Shown piece after piece: positions 15,534 to 26,228 of a stretch of DNA of 57,170 bases. The notes beneath the pieces were generated by a model. It made no database searches. It was not told the DNA's origin and saw nothing but the letters and a program-made list of their open reading frames with translations. A program made the position numbers and the translations under genes. How positions within the stretch are numbered: position 1 is the first letter of the stretch; each line of letters begins with the position of its first letter. Source of the DNA: Alphaproteobacteria bacterium. GTDB lineage: Bacteria > Myxococcota_A > UBA796 > SXON01. The stretch lies in assembly GCA_040376255.1 (NCBI GenBank), contig JBEIQZ010000001.1, forward strand, positions 1 to 57,170. Direction: 5' to 3'.

Positions 15534-15803
15534 ATATATACCGTAAACTTCAACCGCAGACCTCCACTCGTCTTTTACTGTCCGCCCATTCTCCTGGCGT
15601 GTTCCCCGATACGCCCCGGCTGGCCCGGTGGACGTAAGGGGCGTAAACCCCAAAAGAGCCCCCGACATCATAGATATTACCGCCCCTTCCGTTCACCCCC
15701 GGCACGGGCCAGCCGTCGCGCGCCAATGCGCGCGGGGGGAGGCACCAGCGAAGCGCAGTGCCGATGCGGGGTTCCCCCCGCAAAAACAGGTTATCTCTAC
15801 GGC

Positions 15804-16772
15804 ATGATGCACCTGTTTGTGATGGATCCGATCGATCAGCTGAACTACCGGCATGATTCGACGTGGATGATGATGCGGGAGTGTTCGCGGCGCGGAGACA
15901 GGGTGGCGTGGTGTCACCCGGCGGCGATGTATGCGCGCGCGGGGCGCGCGTGGGCGCGGGCGCAGGCGGTGGTGGCGCTGGAGGGGGCGCCGTATTTTGA
16001 GGTCTCCGGGCCGGGGGACGGTTGGGCTGAGGTGGGGCTGGACGAGGCGGACGTCGTGTGGATGCGGAAGGATCCGCCGTTCGACATGACCTACATCTAC
16101 GCGACCTACCTGCTGGGGATGACGACGGCGCTGGTGGTGAATGAGCCGGGGGGGCTGCGGAGCCGGAACGAGAAGCTGTTCGCGTTCTCGTTCCCGGATC
16201 TGACGCCGGAGACGCTGATCACGGCGGACATCGGGCGGATCATCGCTTTCGCGGAGGAGCAGCCGGATCGGGTGGTGCTGAAGCCCTGGGACGGGAACGG
16301 GGGGCGCGGGGTGCTGGTGAGCCACAAGCGCGATCCGAACCTGCGGTCGATGGCGGAGATCCTGACCGGGGACGGGCGGTTCTCGATCATCGCGCAGCGG
16401 CACATCCCTGAGATCGTCGAGGGAGACAAGCGCGTCCTGCTGATCGAGGGGGAGCCGGTGGGGGCGATGCTGCGCGTGCCGACGGGGCGCGATCACCGGG
16501 GGAACATGCATGCGGGGGCGGGGGTCGTGGCATGCGGCCTCAGCGCGCGCGACCGCGAGATCTGCGACCGCATCGGTCCGATCCTGAGGAGGGAGGGGTT
16601 CGTGTTCGTGGGGATCGACATCATCGGCGGCCTCCTGACGGAGATCAACGTCACCAGCCCCACGGGCATCCAGGACATCAACCGGCTCGCAGGGAGTGCG
16701 CCGGGCGGGGGGATCGAGGTGAAGCTCTATGATGCGGTCGCGGCGCGCCATGCCAGTCGCTCCCGCGCCTGA
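15804..16772 (+). CDS. gshB: Glutathione synthetase (prokaryotic ATP-grasp type)
   Basis: Starts at ATG 15804 (MMHLFVMDPIDQLNYRHDSTWMMMRE). Contains LKPWDGNGGRGV and an ATP-grasp C-terminal part. Confidence 0.85.
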   Translation: MMHLFVMDPIDQLNYRHDSTWMMMRECSRRGDRVAWCHPAAMYARAGRAWARAQAVVALEGAPYFEVSGPGDGWAEVGLDEADVVWMRKDPPFDMTYIYATYLLGMTTALVVNEPGGLRSRNEKLFAFSFPDLTPETLITADIGRIIAFAEEQPDRVVLKPWDGNGGRGVLVSHKRDPNLRSMAEILTGDGRFSIIAQRHIPEIVEGDKRVLLIEGEPVGAMLRVPTGRDHRGNMHAGAGVVACGLSARDREICDRIGPILRREGFVFVGIDIIGGLLTEINVTSPTGIQDINRLAGSAPGGGIEVKLYDAVAARHASRSRA

Positions 16773-16821
16773 GATCAGCGCGCATGAAATGCGTGCTGAT
16801 TCACCTCCCTCTGATATGTTG
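16773..16821. repeat. Short palindromic repeat element, truncated intergenic copy
   Basis: atcagcgcgcatgaaatgcgtgctgat matches the reverse complement of 23452-23478 at 25 of 27 positions. gattcacctccctctgatatg matches 23415-23435 at 18 of 21 positions. The hairpin is agcgcgcat/atgcgtgct. The element supplies the ATG of the downstream TPR gene. Confidence 0.7.
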
Positions 16822-18060
16822 GAGCGGCTGAGCCGGAGGCGGCTGCTGGCGGGGCTGACGGCGGGGCTGACGGCGGGGCTGACGGCGCGTCCGGCGCGGG
16901 CGGAGGAGCCGGAAGAGCAGGAGGATCTGTCGGAGAACACGATCACCGGGCGCGCGCCGCCGCCGGCGTCGCTCATCCCGGTGACCCCGACGCTGGCGGC
17001 GGCGCCGCCGGCGGAGCTGGTGGCGCGGCAGCTGGGGGTGCCGCTGGATCTGGCGGCGGGGCTTCAGGCGGCCTGCGAGGGGATCTACGCGCGGGACTAC
17101 GCCGGGGCGAAGGCGGTGCTGGATCGGCTCACGGCGCAGTACCCGACGACGGGGGTGGGGCCGCTCGGCCACTCGATCATCTACCAGGCGTTGATGCTGG
17201 AGAACGTCGACTTCCGCTATGAGCGGGCCTGGCAGGCGGCCTGGGAGGCGACGCAGGCGCAGCTAAGCGCCGGGACGACCGGGGAGGCGAAGCGCGAGCT
17301 GGAGGCGCTGAAGGCGTTCATCCGGGCGGGATCGACGGGGCTGATGGCGATCCACCTGCTCCGGAAGAACGAGTGGGTGAGCGCGCTGGCGCAGGCGGTG
17401 GACGCGATGAATTCGCTGGAGCGCGCCTCCGCGCTGGCGCCGGAATTCGTGGACGTGCGGATCGGGGACGGGCTGTACCTGTACTGGCGCTCGGTGGTGA
17501 CGCTCCAGAGCCGGCTGTTGCCCCCGTTCCCTGACCGGCGTGCGGAGGGCTTCGCGCTGCTCCAGCAGGCGGAGCAGGAGGCGGCGTTCCTGGGGCCGGG
17601 GGCGAGCATCGCGCTCGTCTACTCCTGCATCGAGGAGCGGCGGCTGGATCTGGCGCTGGAGCGGTGCGCGTATCTGCGGCGGCGCTACCCGTCGAACGTG
17701 CTGAACCTGCTGACGATGGGGCGGGTGCTCTCAGCGATGCAGCGGCACGAGGAGGCGCTCCAGCTCTACGCGCACATCCGGGCGAAAATATCGTCCAACC
17801 AGCGGGTGTGGTACCAGGAGGCGGTTGCGCACACGCGGCTGGGGCGGTTCAGCGATGCGGAGCGGTGCCTGAAGATCTACCTGGGGTTCATCGACGTCAC
17901 GGCAGAGAACAAGGCGCAGACGCAGTTCCGGCTCGGGCAGGTCTACGAGAAGCTGCAGCGCCCGGCTGAGGCGCGGCGGTGGTATGAGGAGGCGATCCGG
18001 CTGACCGGGCATGCGGGCGCGGCGGCGGCGCTGAAGCGGCTGGATCGGCTGGGACTGTAG
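16816..18060 (+). CDS. Exported TPR-repeat protein with a twin-arginine-like signal
   Basis: MLERLSRRRLLAGLTAGLTAGLTARPARA, followed by TPR-like helical repeats. The start was chosen at ATG 16816; the track ORF begins at 16729 and would overlap gshB. Confidence 0.65.
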   Translation: MLERLSRRRLLAGLTAGLTAGLTARPARAEEPEEQEDLSENTITGRAPPPASLIPVTPTLAAAPPAELVARQLGVPLDLAAGLQAACEGIYARDYAGAKAVLDRLTAQYPTTGVGPLGHSIIYQALMLENVDFRYERAWQAAWEATQAQLSAGTTGEAKRELEALKAFIRAGSTGLMAIHLLRKNEWVSALAQAVDAMNSLERASALAPEFVDVRIGDGLYLYWRSVVTLQSRLLPPFPDRRAEGFALLQQAEQEAAFLGPGASIALVYSCIEERRLDLALERCAYLRRRYPSNVLNLLTMGRVLSAMQRHEEALQLYAHIRAKISSNQRVWYQEAVAHTRLGRFSDAERCLKIYLGFIDVTAENKAQTQFRLGQVYEKLQRPAEARRWYEEAIRLTGHAGAAAALKRLDRLGL

Positions 18061-22427: not shown

Positions 22428-23834
22428 TCAAGACTTGAACGATCCGGAGTCGGCCATATCTGCACGCCAGCGACGCCACTCTCCGGCCTCGTCGGCGGGG
22501 ACAAAAGCGCGGGCCGGGACTGCGGCGTGGTAGGATCGGAAGGCGGCGGTGAAGGCGGCGGGATCTGACCCGAACCAGCGGGCCGCCTGGGCGTCTCCGT
22601 GGAGCAGCCGCTCGAACCGGAGCCGCGCCACGAGCAGCCCCGCCGCCCGGAACCCGTCCGGGTCGATGCCGGCTGTCAGCGGCGAAGGCGCCGCGAGGGC
22701 GGCGCGCGGATCGGGCAGGCGCAGCGCGGCGGCGAGGAAGCTCTCCCAGCGGTCGAGGTGGTCAGGGGGGCCGGAGGGCAGCGGGGCGCTGGAGATCGCG
22801 CGAGCCGGTCTTGAGGCTGCGCGGCTCAGCATCGCCCGGACGCGCTCCAGCTCTGCCGCCAGCCCCTCCGCCTCGGCTCCGGTCGTCACGCTCCCCTCGA
22901 TGCGCTCCAGCGTGACCCCGCGCAGCCCTGTGCAGCGCGACAGCGCCGCCTCCAGCAGCGCCCACACCGGCTCCGGCACCGGCGCGTCGTGCCCGTCCAT
23001 CCACAGCGTGCGCAGCCTCCAGCCCTCCGGCGCGGGCCGACCCCCGGCGATGTGGATCTCGATCACCCGGTCGAGCGGCGCGCGATCCAGCCACGCCATC
23101 GCGTCGAAGCCGAGGTTCTGCGACATCGCATAGAGGTTGTGCAGATCGAGGAGCAGCCGGTGCGGGCCGACGGCCTCCGCGATCCAGCCCGGCTCGTCGA
23201 GCGGCGCCCCGGCCAGGAACAGGTGCGCGCTGTTCTCCACCCCGACCAGCGGCACCACCGCCGCCATCGCGTCCAGCCGCGTCCGCACCCGCGCCGCCGC
23301 CTCCCGCGTGAACGGCAGCGGCAGCGGCAGCGCGAGGTTCTCATATCGGAGGGAGTGGAATCGATGCTCGATGGCCCGGAGGGGCTGACGCCCCATCCCG
23401 GCCACCGAAGCCCCGATTCCACTCCCTCCGATATGTTGCTCTCTGATGATATCCGCACGCATTTCATGCGCGCCGATATCACCCGCCACCACCGTAAGCG
23501 CGAGGTGATCCGTCCACCAGCCGAACCCGAATTGCCGGTGATCGCGCGCCACCGCCGCCAACCAGCGCGCCCGCCGCGCCTCCCCGCCCGCGCTCCCCGG
23601 CGACACCCCGACGCTGTGCGCCACCGCCGCCAGCCCGCGCGCCTGCTGCAATTCTGCGAACGCCCGCCAGTAGCCGTTCGGCTCCAGGGCTGCGCCGCGC
23701 CACAGGGTCTCCGGCGTCAGCGATACATATTGTACAAGCTCCAACAGCGGCTCACACCACCGCATCCACTCCGGCTCCGGCGCCAGCGCCAGCCCGATCT
23801 GTACCGGCGCGCCGCGCTGCGCCTCAGCCGACAT
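22428..23834 (-). CDS. DUF692 / MNIO-family (MbnB-TglH-BufB-like) TIM-barrel iron enzyme with a ~140-aa C-terminal extension and an internal ~46-aa insertion
   Basis: Family blocks: VAHSVGVS, WWTDHLA, LPLPFTREAA, VGVENSAHL, LLLDLHNLYA, IEIHIAGG. Start taken at ATG 23834, 11 nt inside the end of the upstream gene; the track start is 23870. The extension has no recognised domain. Confidence 0.75.
   Translation of the reverse strand: MSAEAQRGAPVQIGLALAPEPEWMRWCEPLLELVQYVSLTPETLWRGAALEPNGYWRAFAELQQARGLAAVAHSVGVSPGSAGGEARRARWLAAVARDHRQFGFGWWTDHLALTVVAGDIGAHEMRADIIREQHIGGSGIGASVAGMGRQPLRAIEHRFHSLRYENLALPLPLPFTREAAARVRTRLDAMAAVVPLVGVENSAHLFLAGAPLDEPGWIAEAVGPHRLLLDLHNLYAMSQNLGFDAMAWLDRAPLDRVIEIHIAGGRPAPEGWRLRTLWMDGHDAPVPEPVWALLEAALSRCTGLRGVTLERIEGSVTTGAEAEGLAAELERVRAMLSRAASRPARAISSAPLPSGPPDHLDRWESFLAAALRLPDPRAALAAPSPLTAGIDPDGFRAAGLLVARLRFERLLHGDAQAARWFGSDPAAFTAAFRSYHAAVPARAFVPADEAGEWRRWRADMADSGSFKS
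23342..23480. repeat. Palindromic repeat element inserted in frame in the MNIO gene (full-length copy)
   Basis: Perfect 22-bp inverted repeat: catatcggagggagtggaatcg (23342-23363) and cgattccactccctccgatatg (23414-23435). A second hairpin lies at gcacgcatttcatgcgcgc (23454-23472). Related to 16773-16821. Confidence 0.75.
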
Positions 23835-24810
23835 AGTACTCCAGGAAGCGCGCCGCACGCGCCGGGACATGGCCCATCCCGCACCTGATCCCCGGCTGCT
23901 CCGCCTTCAGCGATCCGTCCGGTTGCTCATAGGAGACACCGCAGCCGGAGTCGTGCCCCCACCGCGAATTTACAGGTGCCTTCGCGCGGTACAGCGCCAC
24001 CCCGCGCTCCTGGAGCGGTGCGATGTCGGCTGGAAGCGGCCCGAGCGCGGCGCCCACCGCCCGCTCCACCGCCGCAGACAGCGCGTCGATGTAAAGATTG
24101 ATCAACCGGATCTGCTGCGTCACGCCCGGATCGGGATCGATGGTGATGCTGGACGCCGCCTCCAGGCGGATCGCCAGCCCAGACGCAGGCACCCCGGCGC
24201 AGGTGATCGCAGCCTCCAGCCGGGCGTAAATCTCCTCCAGCGCCCCTGACGCCTCCGCGAGCATTGACGTGTCCCTGTCCGCCAGGAGCGCCCCGATCTC
24301 ATGGAGCGTCCCCGCCGTCTCCGCCCGCGACGCTGCCGTCATGCACCCCGGCGACAGCCCCGCGAGCTCAGCGTTGATCGCCTGCCACTCCGACAGCTTC
24401 GCCTTCGCATCCAGCAACGGATCCACGGGCGGCGGCTCCACCACCGGATCGATGTCCGCCGCGACCGGCGCCCCGCCCGGCGGCACCAGCCAGAGCCACG
24501 GCGCTCCCGTGACGCTGAACACCTCCTCTACCGCCTGCGGATCGGCGCACACCGCCTCGCACTGCCCGAGCCGCGCCATCACCCGCTCATCGGCGTAGTT
24601 CAGGAGCGGCCCCCACCGCTCAGTCCGCTCCCACGACCGATCCGCAGGCGCCACAATGATCAGCAGCGGACGCCCCGCCGCCCGCGCCGACGACTGCGCC
24701 GTCAGGAGCCCCGGCACCGCACCCGCCGCGCCCCACGCCTCCTGCAGCCACAGCGGCATCGTGCCTGCAGTGAGCGCCCCGATCCCCGCCAGCAACCTCC
24801 TCCGGTTCAT
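23824..24810 (-). CDS. Tat-signal protein, paralog A, with a conserved C-terminal Cys motif; candidate MNIO substrate
   Basis: MNRRRLLAGIGALTAG twin-arginine signal. C-terminus: SRWGHDSGCGVSYEQPDGSLKAEQPGIRCGMGHVPARAARFLEYYVG. ATGA overlap with paralog B. Confidence 0.7.
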   Translation of the reverse strand: MNRRRLLAGIGALTAGTMPLWLQEAWGAAGAVPGLLTAQSSARAAGRPLLIIVAPADRSWERTERWGPLLNYADERVMARLGQCEAVCADPQAVEEVFSVTGAPWLWLVPPGGAPVAADIDPVVEPPPVDPLLDAKAKLSEWQAINAELAGLSPGCMTAASRAETAGTLHEIGALLADRDTSMLAEASGALEEIYARLEAAITCAGVPASGLAIRLEAASSITIDPDPGVTQQIRLINLYIDALSAAVERAVGAALGPLPADIAPLQERGVALYRAKAPVNSRWGHDSGCGVSYEQPDGSLKAEQPGIRCGMGHVPARAARFLEYYVG

Positions 24811-25757
24811 CCCGCCTCCCCGCCCGCCAAAAACTCAAGGAACCGTGCCGCCCGCGCCGGGACATGCCCCATCCCGCAGTCGAACCCCGGCGCGTCCGGC
24901 TCCCGCACCGCCTCCCCGTCCGGCCCCTCGTATGCGTCCGGCCCGCACCCCGATCTCTGCCACCAGCGGCTCATCGGCGGCGGCCTCCGGCGGAAGCGCG
25001 CGATCCCGTCCCCGGCGAGCCGCGCCCGCTCCGCCGGATCCTCCGGCAGCGCCCCGGCGACCTCCCGCGCCACCGCCTCCACCAGCTCCTCCAGCGCCGC
25101 GACCTGCGCCGCGCACCACCCGTCCTGCTGCCGCTCCCGGCTGTCCGGGGGCTGGAGCAGCAGCGCCCGCGCCGCCGTGATCGCCCCCGGCTCCCCCGGC
25201 TCTGCGCGCGGGCCGCAGAGCCAGCGGGCGATGTCCGTGAGCGGCCCCGCCGCCTGCCAGAGCCAGCCGGGATCGTCGCTCCACGGCACCTCCTGCGCGC
25301 GACGGATCGCCTGCCCGATCTTGCGGGCCTCCCTCGGCTGGAGCCGGTGATCGCAGGCGGCGGCCAGCGCCCGGATCGCCGCGATCCGCTCCTCCAGCAG
25401 CGACGGGGGGAGCAGAACCGCCGGGGTCCCCGCCACCGCCCACTCCCCGGAGAGCCCCCACAGCCAGCCCGCTCCCTCTGCGCCCTCCAGCCCGGTCACC
25501 TCCCGGATCGCCGCCTCCTGCGCGCAGATCACATCGCACTGGCCGAGCCGCGCCATCGCGGCCTCCCCACCCGCGTTGAGCAGCATCCCCCACGCCCGCC
25601 CGCGCCAGGCAGACCCCCCCGGATCCGCCGCGCAGAGCGCCAGCAGCGGGCGCCCCGCCGCCTCCGCCGCCTGCCGGGCCGCCTCCAGCGCGACCGCCGC
25701 CGGGGACACCGGCGCCCGCGCTGCCCACAGGCAGATCCTCACGGCTGGATCGGCCAT
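24807..25757 (-). CDS. Paralog B of the Cys-motif protein; candidate MNIO substrate
   Basis: Shares the blocks AAGRPLL...MARLGQC(D/E)x(I/V)CA...WLW with A. C-terminus: SRWWQRSGCGPDAYEGPDGEAVREPDAPGFDCGMGHVPARAARFLEF. Start taken at ATG 25757. No clear signal peptide. The longer track ORF (to 26228) has a junk-like N-terminus. Confidence 0.6.
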   Translation of the reverse strand: MADPAVRICLWAARAPVSPAAVALEAARQAAEAAGRPLLALCAADPGGSAWRGRAWGMLLNAGGEAAMARLGQCDVICAQEAAIREVTGLEGAEGAGWLWGLSGEWAVAGTPAVLLPPSLLEERIAAIRALAAACDHRLQPREARKIGQAIRRAQEVPWSDDPGWLWQAAGPLTDIARWLCGPRAEPGEPGAITAARALLLQPPDSRERQQDGWCAAQVAALEELVEAVAREVAGALPEDPAERARLAGDGIARFRRRPPPMSRWWQRSGCGPDAYEGPDGEAVREPDAPGFDCGMGHVPARAARFLEFLAGGEAG

Positions 25758-26125
25758 TCCAGCTCCATCGGCCGCTCCAGCGCGGGCCACGCCTGCGCCC
25801 CGACCGCCTGCCGCAGACAGTCCGCCTCCCCGATCCCTGACCACAGCGCCTGCTCCAGCCCCCGGCCCACCCGCACGCGCAGCGTCCCGGCCGCCCCGCA
25901 GCCCGCCGCCTGCCCGCTGACGCGCGAGAGGATCCCGATCACCTGCCCCGCGTCCCCGGCGGTCTCCGACGGCAGCCCGGGCGGCCCGATCAGCGTGACC
26001 TCCGGCAGCGCCGCCGGAGCAGCCTCCGGGATCGCCACCCCCGGATCGTCGATCTCCCGGATCGCCCAGATCGTCAGCCCGGTCAGCAGCACGATCCGCA
26101 GCACCAACCATCGGTTGTTCAGCAC
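25739..26125 (-). CDS. Small membrane-anchored protein, first gene of the MNIO operon
   Basis: One TM helix (WLVLRIVLLTGLTIWAI) followed by a ~100-aa domain. GTG 26125 is preceded by GGGGAG; ATG 26197 is an alternative start. Overlaps the start of paralog B by 19 nt. Confidence 0.5.
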   Translation of the reverse strand: MLNNRWLVLRIVLLTGLTIWAIREIDDPGVAIPEAAPAALPEVTLIGPPGLPSETAGDAGQVIGILSRVSGQAAGCGAAGTLRVRVGRGLEQALWSGIGEADCLRQAVGAQAWPALERPMELEWPIQP

Positions 26126-26228
26126 ACAGCTCCCCTGTCTCTCTTCTCTGTCTCTCTTTATCACGAGAGCGGGCGGCCAGTTGTAAGGCCCATGCATGTG
26201 CTTCCGTTGCCCGGCGCCTGGAGGACAT

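Follow-up and report, generated by a model that had tools for sequence, protein, structure and literature searches.

In-frame insertions into protein genes have been documented for two kinds of small bacterial repeats, miniature transposable elements with inverted repeats (MITEs) and Rickettsia palindromic elements (RPEs) (PMC10969869). RPEs are palindromic repeats of ~100-150 bp that lie between and within unrelated protein genes, where they are in frame and stop-free and extend the protein by a segment at a predicted fold-compatible site (Ogata et al. 2000, summarised in PMC10969869). Bacterial MITEs (reviewed in PMC10969869, PMC3184786), among them Correia/NEMIS, ERIC, Nezha and the Anabaena MITEs, are small and non-coding and have terminal inverted repeats, short flanking direct repeats and a hairpin transcript; they are present or absent between close relatives, form internally deleted derivatives and occasionally occur in frame within genes. 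The REP/BIME/REPIN repeats, which are mobilised by RAYT proteins, are imperfect palindromes in a larger hairpin whose stem is conserved and which is probably recognised as a hairpin (PMC3733652). Here we analysed a stretch of 57,170 nt (the window; contig JBEIQZ010000001.1 of assembly GCA_040376255.1, positions 1 to 57,170) from a bacterium deposited as Alphaproteobacteria bacterium and placed by GTDB in Myxococcota_A. An MNIO/DUF692 gene of the window contains 46 additional in-frame codons, which very probably result from the insertion of a non-autonomous, mobile palindromic element of MITE-like or RPE-like type at a TGA triplet (TCA on the plus strand). With it, a rare new family joins a known type of element, and the event itself is of a type already described.

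The in-frame insertion in the MNIO gene

The host gene (22428-23870, minus strand) encodes an MNIO/DUF692 (PF05114) maturase, an enzyme that depends on iron and modifies peptides, with a C-terminal extension. Its open reading frame (ORF) comprises 480 amino acids, the public assemblies calling the start at Met13 (ATG at 23834), which gives 468 amino acids. The protein matches PF05114 with 95.3 bits (gathering cut-off 25), retains all 15 columns that are invariant in an alignment of 119 homologs, and is modelled by AlphaFold2 with a confident barrel (mean pLDDT 81.7, pTM 0.83) for which Foldseek retrieves TglH (8hi7, 8hci) and MbnB (7fc0, 7tcr) with a probability of 1.00, identifying it as a TIM barrel of the TglH/MbnB type. 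The match to the MNIO domain is split, and alignments to Pfam, NCBIfam and PDB sequences are confined to the region behind the insert: the PF05114 alignment is limited to profile positions 104-261, starting at residue 183, and the NCBIfam and PDB sequence alignments restart at residues 174-194, around profile position 100.

The distance between the invariant His122 and Pro182 is 13 residues in 117 of the 119 homologs and 17 and 19 residues in the other two, and insertions of 4 and 6 residues are found in two homologs at the very turn that is affected here. In the window protein the spacing is 59 residues. Since 59 equals 13 plus 46, the insertion amounts to exactly 46 codons, i.e. 138 nt (23343-23480, minus strand; residues 131-176, DIGAHEM...FHSLRY). 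This agrees with the insertion of roughly 45 residues expected in an initial annotation of the window, which had been made from the sequence alone. The ~139-bp block described there is indeed stop-free and encodes the peptide given at the time; its size has to be corrected to 138 nt for the insertion, and a comparison with a second copy (L079, see below) places the element at 23341-23481. On the minus strand the inserted block reads as DIGAHEMRADIIREQHIGGSGIGASVAGMGRQPLRAIEHRFHSLRY, with the junction peptides EQHIGGSGIGASVAGMGR and FHSLR; the sequence across the insertion site is GGGTGAGAACC. None of the 119 homologs, all of which are at most 53% identical to the window protein, contains the 46-residue segment, so the segment is not an ancestral loop, the alternative that the initial annotation had weighed. 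The GC content at third codon positions (GC3) is 0.63 in the insert and 0.89 in the rest of the gene, where no other window of 46 codons falls below 0.74; judged by its codons, the insert has a base composition foreign to the host gene.

In the AlphaFold2 model residues 132-174 have pLDDT values of 30-41 and bulge out from the turn between the strands formed by residues 125-129 and 176-183. The model thus predicts a disordered loop for the 46 added residues, located where a β-hairpin turns. The β-hairpin follows His122, which we take to be the counterpart of the MbnB iron ligand His90.

A second assembly of the same organism (L001, protein P0001) is 99.9% identical and carries the identical insert. 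The two assemblies differ by eight single-nucleotide polymorphisms (SNPs) over 8.2 kb, none of them within the element, indicating that the insert is not an assembly artefact.

Folding, copies and target sites of the element

The element contains a perfect 22-bp inverted repeat (23342-23363 and 23414-23435), exactly where the initial annotation had located it. The plus strand of the first arm is CATATCGGAGGGAGTGGAATCG, and the second arm is its exact reverse complement. This arm pair is the strongest inverted repeat of the whole window, and no matching pair appeared in 100 dinucleotide shuffles of the window. The sequence between the arms, initially regarded as a GC-rich loop, is itself base-paired: as RNA or as DNA, the region 23342-23435 folds into one nearly unbroken hairpin of 94 nt that has the 22-bp arms at its base and an apical loop of only 4 nt. 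The second hairpin noted next to it is real. This short module (23447-23481, 35 nt, core GCACGCATTTCATGCGCGC) follows after an 11-nt spacer and is shared with the short copy described below; the pair at the foot of its stem is A-T in L079 and in the short copy and a mismatch in the MNIO copy. The transcribed strand of the element has a calculated RNA folding energy of -111.6 kcal/mol, compared to -59.3 ± 4.4 kcal/mol for shuffled sequences (z = -11.8), and the DNA fold gives z = -11.0. A search against Rfam yielded no family at gathering score, the sub-threshold matches to miRNA precursors merely mirroring the shape of the long hairpin, and no sigma-70-like promoter or intrinsic terminator was detected within or around the element.

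The copy that defines the boundaries lies on a 3.8-kb contig from a marine metagenome (L079, assembly ERZ909423; 67% GC), which carries unrelated genes including a HipA homolog. L079 was found via a 42-residue ORF (P0122). Positions 1239-1382 of L079, which are intergenic, align to window positions 23341-23484 without gaps at 90% identity, and the similarity ends abruptly on both sides. The body of the element thus comprises 135 nt (23344-23478, TATCGG...CCGATA). The termini are TATCGG...C(C/T)GATA in both full copies, each of which lies between two TCA triplets (in the window 23341-23343 and 23479-23481) that form a direct repeat with a period of 138 nt; the triplets may be a 3-bp target-site duplication or the target itself. 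Body and one triplet add up to 138 nt, the length of the 46-codon insertion. As 138 is a multiple of three and the frame used is free of stop codons (three of the six frames of the element are, including this one), the MNIO frame stays open. The terminal inverted repeat is short, with 8 of 9 positions matching at the ends (flanking triplet included) and 14 of 19 when extended, and it exists because the two hairpin modules share the foot sequence ATATCGG/CCGATAT.

Of the 141 positions compared between the window copy and that of L079, 13 differ, and their distribution is uneven. Only 1 of the 80 paired positions of the long hairpin is affected, as opposed to 4 of its 14 unpaired positions (Fisher p = 0.0015); the remaining 8 differences fall within the 47 positions outside this hairpin. 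As the differences spare paired positions, conservation tracks nucleic-acid structure and not the peptide or the codon position. A third copy was detected by a word-index protein search in a 144-residue ORF (P0121) on a 935-bp contig (ERZ21989563 / JGI), where a different frame of the element is read at 77% identity. This copy is known from its translation alone, its flanking bases being back-translations. The ORF extends on both sides of the element into peptides such as HPALRATFSPKGRRDGG and GPPGHLLPQGGEGTEGAP, which presumably resemble translations of other GC-rich intergenic repeats; the copy is probably located in non-coding DNA dense in repeats, and the ORF is probably not a real gene. 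In an exhaustive phmmer (HMMER) search of 1.84 billion representative proteins with four frames of the element, the host protein and P0122 were the only hits.

The window itself harbours a second copy, so that two copies lie within 57 kb. This short copy (16773-16816, 44 nt, GATCAGCGCGCATGAAATGCGTGCTGAT|TCACCTCCCTCTGATA) sits between gshB and a gene for a tetratricopeptide repeat (TPR) protein, in the opposite orientation to the full copy on the plus strand. In it the short hairpin module is joined directly to the terminal arm, and the internal 91 nt are missing. It is collinear with both ends of the full copy, with 38 of 44 positions identical (25 of 28 in the hairpin module, 13 of 16 in the terminal arm). 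A similarity search within the window recovered the hairpin core (19 of 19 identical, E = 2.9e-5) and the adjoining arm (16 of 17). The copy was already recognised at 16773-16821 in the initial annotation, whose counts of 25 of 27 identical hairpin positions and 18 of 21 arm positions are correct; "truncated", the word used there, fits in the sense that both termini are kept and the middle is gone. The short form may have arisen as a deletion derivative that is itself mobile, or else the palindrome may have been lost between the GAT repeats once the element was in place.

For the short copy an empty site is available. A homolog of the TPR protein (P0124, 97% identical) is encoded on a Logan contig from run SRR23086393 (L080), whose identity to the window is 93.9% over 3.7 kb. 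At the junction L080 reads ...CGCGCC TGA TGGAGC... (...GCGCCTGA|TGGAGC...) and the window reads ...CGCGCC TGA [44 nt] TGT TGGAGC..., corresponding to an exact 47-nt insertion at a single TGA. The short copy is likewise absent from L081, a more distant relative. The TGA (16770-16772, plus strand) is the stop codon of gshB as well as the target of the short copy, and in L080 it overlaps the ATG of the TPR gene (TGATG). The alignment with L080 and the N-terminus of P0124 point to TGT (16817-16819, plus strand) as a putative, imperfect second copy of the target triplet. The element thus landed on an overlapping stop/start TGATG and rebuilt the gene junction, supplying a new ATG (16816-16818). As initially proposed, the copy essentially provides this start codon, with the qualification that only the A is the last base of the element, the TG coming from the flanking triplet. 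The ancestral ATG is now a TTG (16819-16821), which could serve as an alternative start codon, and the N-terminus changed from MERLSRRR in P0124 to MLERLSRRR in the window. Taken together, the complete copy on L079, the copy in P0121 and the short copy with its empty site provide the further copies on which the initial annotation had made its interpretation depend.

Some observations concern the surroundings of the short copy and the hairpin core. The trmE-gshB spacer of the window (15534-15725) is ~180 nt longer than that of L080, unrelated to it except for the last ~30 nt before gshB, and holds an inverted repeat of 16 nt (15612-15627 / 15705-15720); a further insertion or replacement, unlike the first, may have occurred here. 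The signal peptide of the TPR protein, which is of the twin-arginine type, contains AGLT-AGLT-AGLT, encoded by three tandem 12-nt units at 16851-16886 (GGGGCTGACGGC). L080 carries 15 extra nt there (…AGLAPVLTARPARA), so that the length of the signal-peptide core varies between close relatives. The 19-nt hairpin core (GCGCGCATGAAATGCGCGC) also forms the centre of other, unrelated nested-palindrome repeats, namely ...tcatcctgagg[core]gtctcgaaggacgagg... in Hyphococcus, Parvularcula and Caulobacterales and ...gtgggagaaggtg[core]cggatgaggggt... in Bradyrhizobium (loci L003, L005, L025, L030, L039 and L059; L015, L017, L023 and L048). It is further found in a high-copy repeat of the rumen Clostridiales metagenome-assembled genome RUG467 at ~25 loci (e.g. 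L006, L014, L016). The core may be a recurring module or a mere convergence of GC-rich palindromes.

Relation to described elements and alternative explanations

With its two forms of 135 nt and 44 nt the element falls within the size range of MITEs (under ~600 bp, no transposase ORF), and it has terminal inverted repeats. Unlike in MITEs, the inverted repeat proper is short (6-9 bp), as the element ends are the feet of two different hairpins. An empty site is seen for the short copy only, L080 and L081 lacking exactly 47 nt. The flanking triplets (TCA on both sides of either full copy; TGA and TGT beside the short copy, with a single TGA in the empty site) are compatible with a duplication as well as with insertion beside a fixed TGA. 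A cognate insertion sequence with these ends, as known for MITEs, was not found in the window, the plasmids or the viral contigs.

The likeness to RPEs lies in the size, the palindromic structure and the in-frame, stop-free reading within a gene at a predicted fold-compatible site, although only one intragenic copy is known here. A sequence relationship does not exist, as the element peptides match no Rickettsia protein among 1.84 billion representative proteins. Moreover, the present host belongs to a free-living lineage with 70% GC, and copies are very few compared to dozens for RPEs; the terminal inverted repeats (short but clear), the constant TGA/TCA flank and the empty site seen for the short copy are further differences.

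The conserved stem of an imperfect palindrome links the element to REP/REPIN sequences. However, its main hairpin comprises 94 nt compared to 20-40 nt, one copy is intragenic, and the element lacks GTAG and CTAC, with GACG occurring in the apical loop only (tag as defined in PMC3733652). The comparison made initially with REP, MITE and RPE sequences is thus borne out for behaviour and not for membership: neither the GTAG/CGTC tag nor a Rickettsia match is present, and "MITE-like/RPE-like" is the right level of claim.

Being non-autonomous, the element would be mobilised in trans by a transposase encoded elsewhere. Duplications of 3 bp with the sequence TNA or TWA are made by the IS427 and IS1031 groups of the IS5 family and by Tourist/PIF-Harbinger MITEs. 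The leading idea is a DDE enzyme of one of these types, IS5-family IS427/IS1031 or Tourist/Harbinger, that would make a 3-bp TNA duplication. The terminal inverted repeats and the perfect TCA/TCA flanks at two of four copies support this idea. In contrast, the termini do not resemble any IS5-family end that we know of, and no transposase is linked to the element. Two other target types did not fit. For a TA duplication of the IS630/mariner type, the terminal TA dinucleotides lie 133 nt from each other, a distance neither divisible by three nor in agreement with the 138-nt insertion. The GTTC target of IS91-like elements precedes the MNIO copy only. Translational bypass of the insert is not needed with an open frame, and matching take-off and landing codons are absent.

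Following insertion, ribosomes are expected to read through the insert, adding 46 residues as an extra loop that the enzyme would tolerate. At the RNA level the ~44-bp stem in the transcript would be a good substrate for RNase III, as is reported of other transcribed bacterial hairpin repeats, and might lower expression.

Several results weigh against the interpretation as a mobile element that inserted at a TGA within the gene. The open frame is weak evidence of retained function or selection, because about half of all random insertions of the element into a gene would leave the ORF open. The flanking triplets are perfect in only two of four copies, with TGA/TGT in the short copy and A[C/T]A versus T[A/C/T]A in the back-translation of P0121, and because of these mismatches the triplets do not prove that the target was duplicated. 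No more than four copies are known, distributed over three or four organisms. Scanning the GTDB representative genomes, a collection that excludes the window's genome, with the hairpin core GCGCGCATGAAATGCGYGC gave 76 loci, none of which shares more than 23 nt. A scan of the JGI metagenomes with the arm pattern GATTCMMCTCCCTCYGATATG, which is over-strict at its 3' end given that the L079 copy ends in GATATT, yielded a single chance match inside a low-GC gene for an EAL-domain protein. Searches of PLSDB plasmids (blastn, E up to 10) and IMG/VR viral contigs gave chance matches only, and neither a longer element nor a transposase with matching termini was found in the window, the plasmids or the viral contigs. 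A close MNIO ortholog free of the insertion was not found either, the nearest homolog being 53% identical. Finally, codon 311 of the MNIO gene (window 22940) encodes Ser (ALSRCTG) in the window strain and Pro in L001/P0001 and in at least 90% of the homologs. This nonsynonymous change at a nearly invariant residue is one of the eight SNPs between the two assemblies, and it may hint at relaxed constraint on the insert-bearing gene. Exact-sequence searches with gshB, P0123 and the two proteins encoded upstream in the operon retrieved L001 only or nothing. Sampling of the host lineage is poor, and the nearest named homologs of the MNIO and TPR proteins are from Myxococcota, with 40-50% identity, which merely suggests a taxonomic placement.

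One alternative is that the insertion inactivated the MNIO gene, leaving a recent pseudogene that is open only due to a frame-neutral, stop-free element and the rarity of stop codons at 70% GC. In a TIM barrel the β-α loops form the catalytic face. The insert lies nine residues past His122 in such a loop, behind a metal-ligand strand, and would by this topology be on the catalytic face, in a segment of fixed length in 117 of 119 homologs; the mRNA holds a very stable hairpin, and Ser311 fits the same picture. On the other hand, all 15 invariant residues are intact, 480 codons are free of frameshifts and stops, the gene is still translationally coupled to the upstream operon genes, and two homologs tolerate small insertions at the same turn. 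RPE-type insertions, too, are usually compatible with the fold (PMC10969869). We regard a pseudogene as possible, if less likely than not.

Another explanation keeps the element and changes its mode of transport. It could have moved as single-stranded DNA by means of a hairpin-recognising Y1/HUH transposase (IS200/IS605-derived PATE or RAYT/REPIN-like), inserting just 3' of a fixed TGA without duplication, the terminal TGA or TGT being carried by the element. Hairpins are present at both ends, with the stem conserved and not the loop sequence, and a TGA adjoins the short-hairpin end at all three sites for which DNA is available. At the opposite end the triplet is TGA in two copies, TGT in one and probably TGT in P0121, a variation that fits an element-borne end better than a duplication. 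To our knowledge, the ends of IS200/IS605 elements lack terminal inverted repeats. The present element combines recognisable ones with the hairpins and the constant TGA expected of a PATE. In addition, the hairpins directly abut the termini, and the 94-nt hairpin far exceeds typical left-end/right-end or REP hairpins. The tag GTAG or CGTC is absent from the hairpin foot (PMC3733652). No RAYT or TnpA gene turned up, and no RAYT gene is known near the element, the ORFs of the window not having been scanned systematically for Y1 transposases. Both routes fit the sequence; we consider the HUH/Y1 route less likely than not and give a DDE-type MITE with TNA duplication a slight edge over hairpin-guided insertion.

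A bolder proposal would be an undescribed class of frame-neutral hairpin transposons, which would add a multiple of three nucleotides and lack stops in half of their frames. Guided by their hairpins as single strands, they would target TGA triplets (stop codons among them), and the present insertion would be no passenger: the 46-residue loop on the catalytic face would change partner or substrate recognition, or the ~44-bp stem would put an operon for ribosomally synthesised and post-translationally modified peptides (RiPPs) under control of RNase III. We consider this very improbable. That the 46 residues are a lineage-specific protein loop or domain whose DNA is palindromic by chance would agree with a stop-free segment present in both assemblies, but is for practical purposes refuted by the 90%-identical intergenic copy at an unrelated locus on L079, and further contradicted by the different reading frame in P0121, the GC3 far below that of the host gene, the absence from 119 homologs, conservation that follows base-pairing instead of codon position, and the lack of a confident fold in AlphaFold2.

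The MNIO operon and the meaning of the insertion

The MNIO gene is part of a minus-strand operon of overlapping genes (22428-26197), together with genes for three proteins of 152, 316 and 328 amino acids that have no Pfam or NCBIfam match; a gene for an FAD monooxygenase adjoins the operon. The C-terminal extension of the MNIO protein (~130 residues, 350-480) is conserved and common to many homologs, and the protein remains below the cut-offs of every named NCBIfam MNIO subfamily (BufB, ChrH, HvfB, ApyH). The operon looks like an uncharacterised MNIO/RiPP-like cluster.

The presence of a MITE-like/RPE-like element in this gene leaves the current understanding of MITEs and MNIOs unchanged. As the insertion splits the MNIO profile match, automated RiPP-mining tools may mis-score or truncate the enzyme. 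The reading of selfish hairpin DNA as protein is best known from Rickettsia, a few cyanobacteria and enterics. The present case extends this phenomenon to a high-GC environmental lineage and to a metalloenzyme with an otherwise length-fixed site, and it is a test, provided by nature, of the extra sequence that a TIM barrel can absorb in a catalytic-face loop. The main importance of the finding thus lies in the annotation of the MNIO gene and in a natural loop-insertion experiment in an enzyme.

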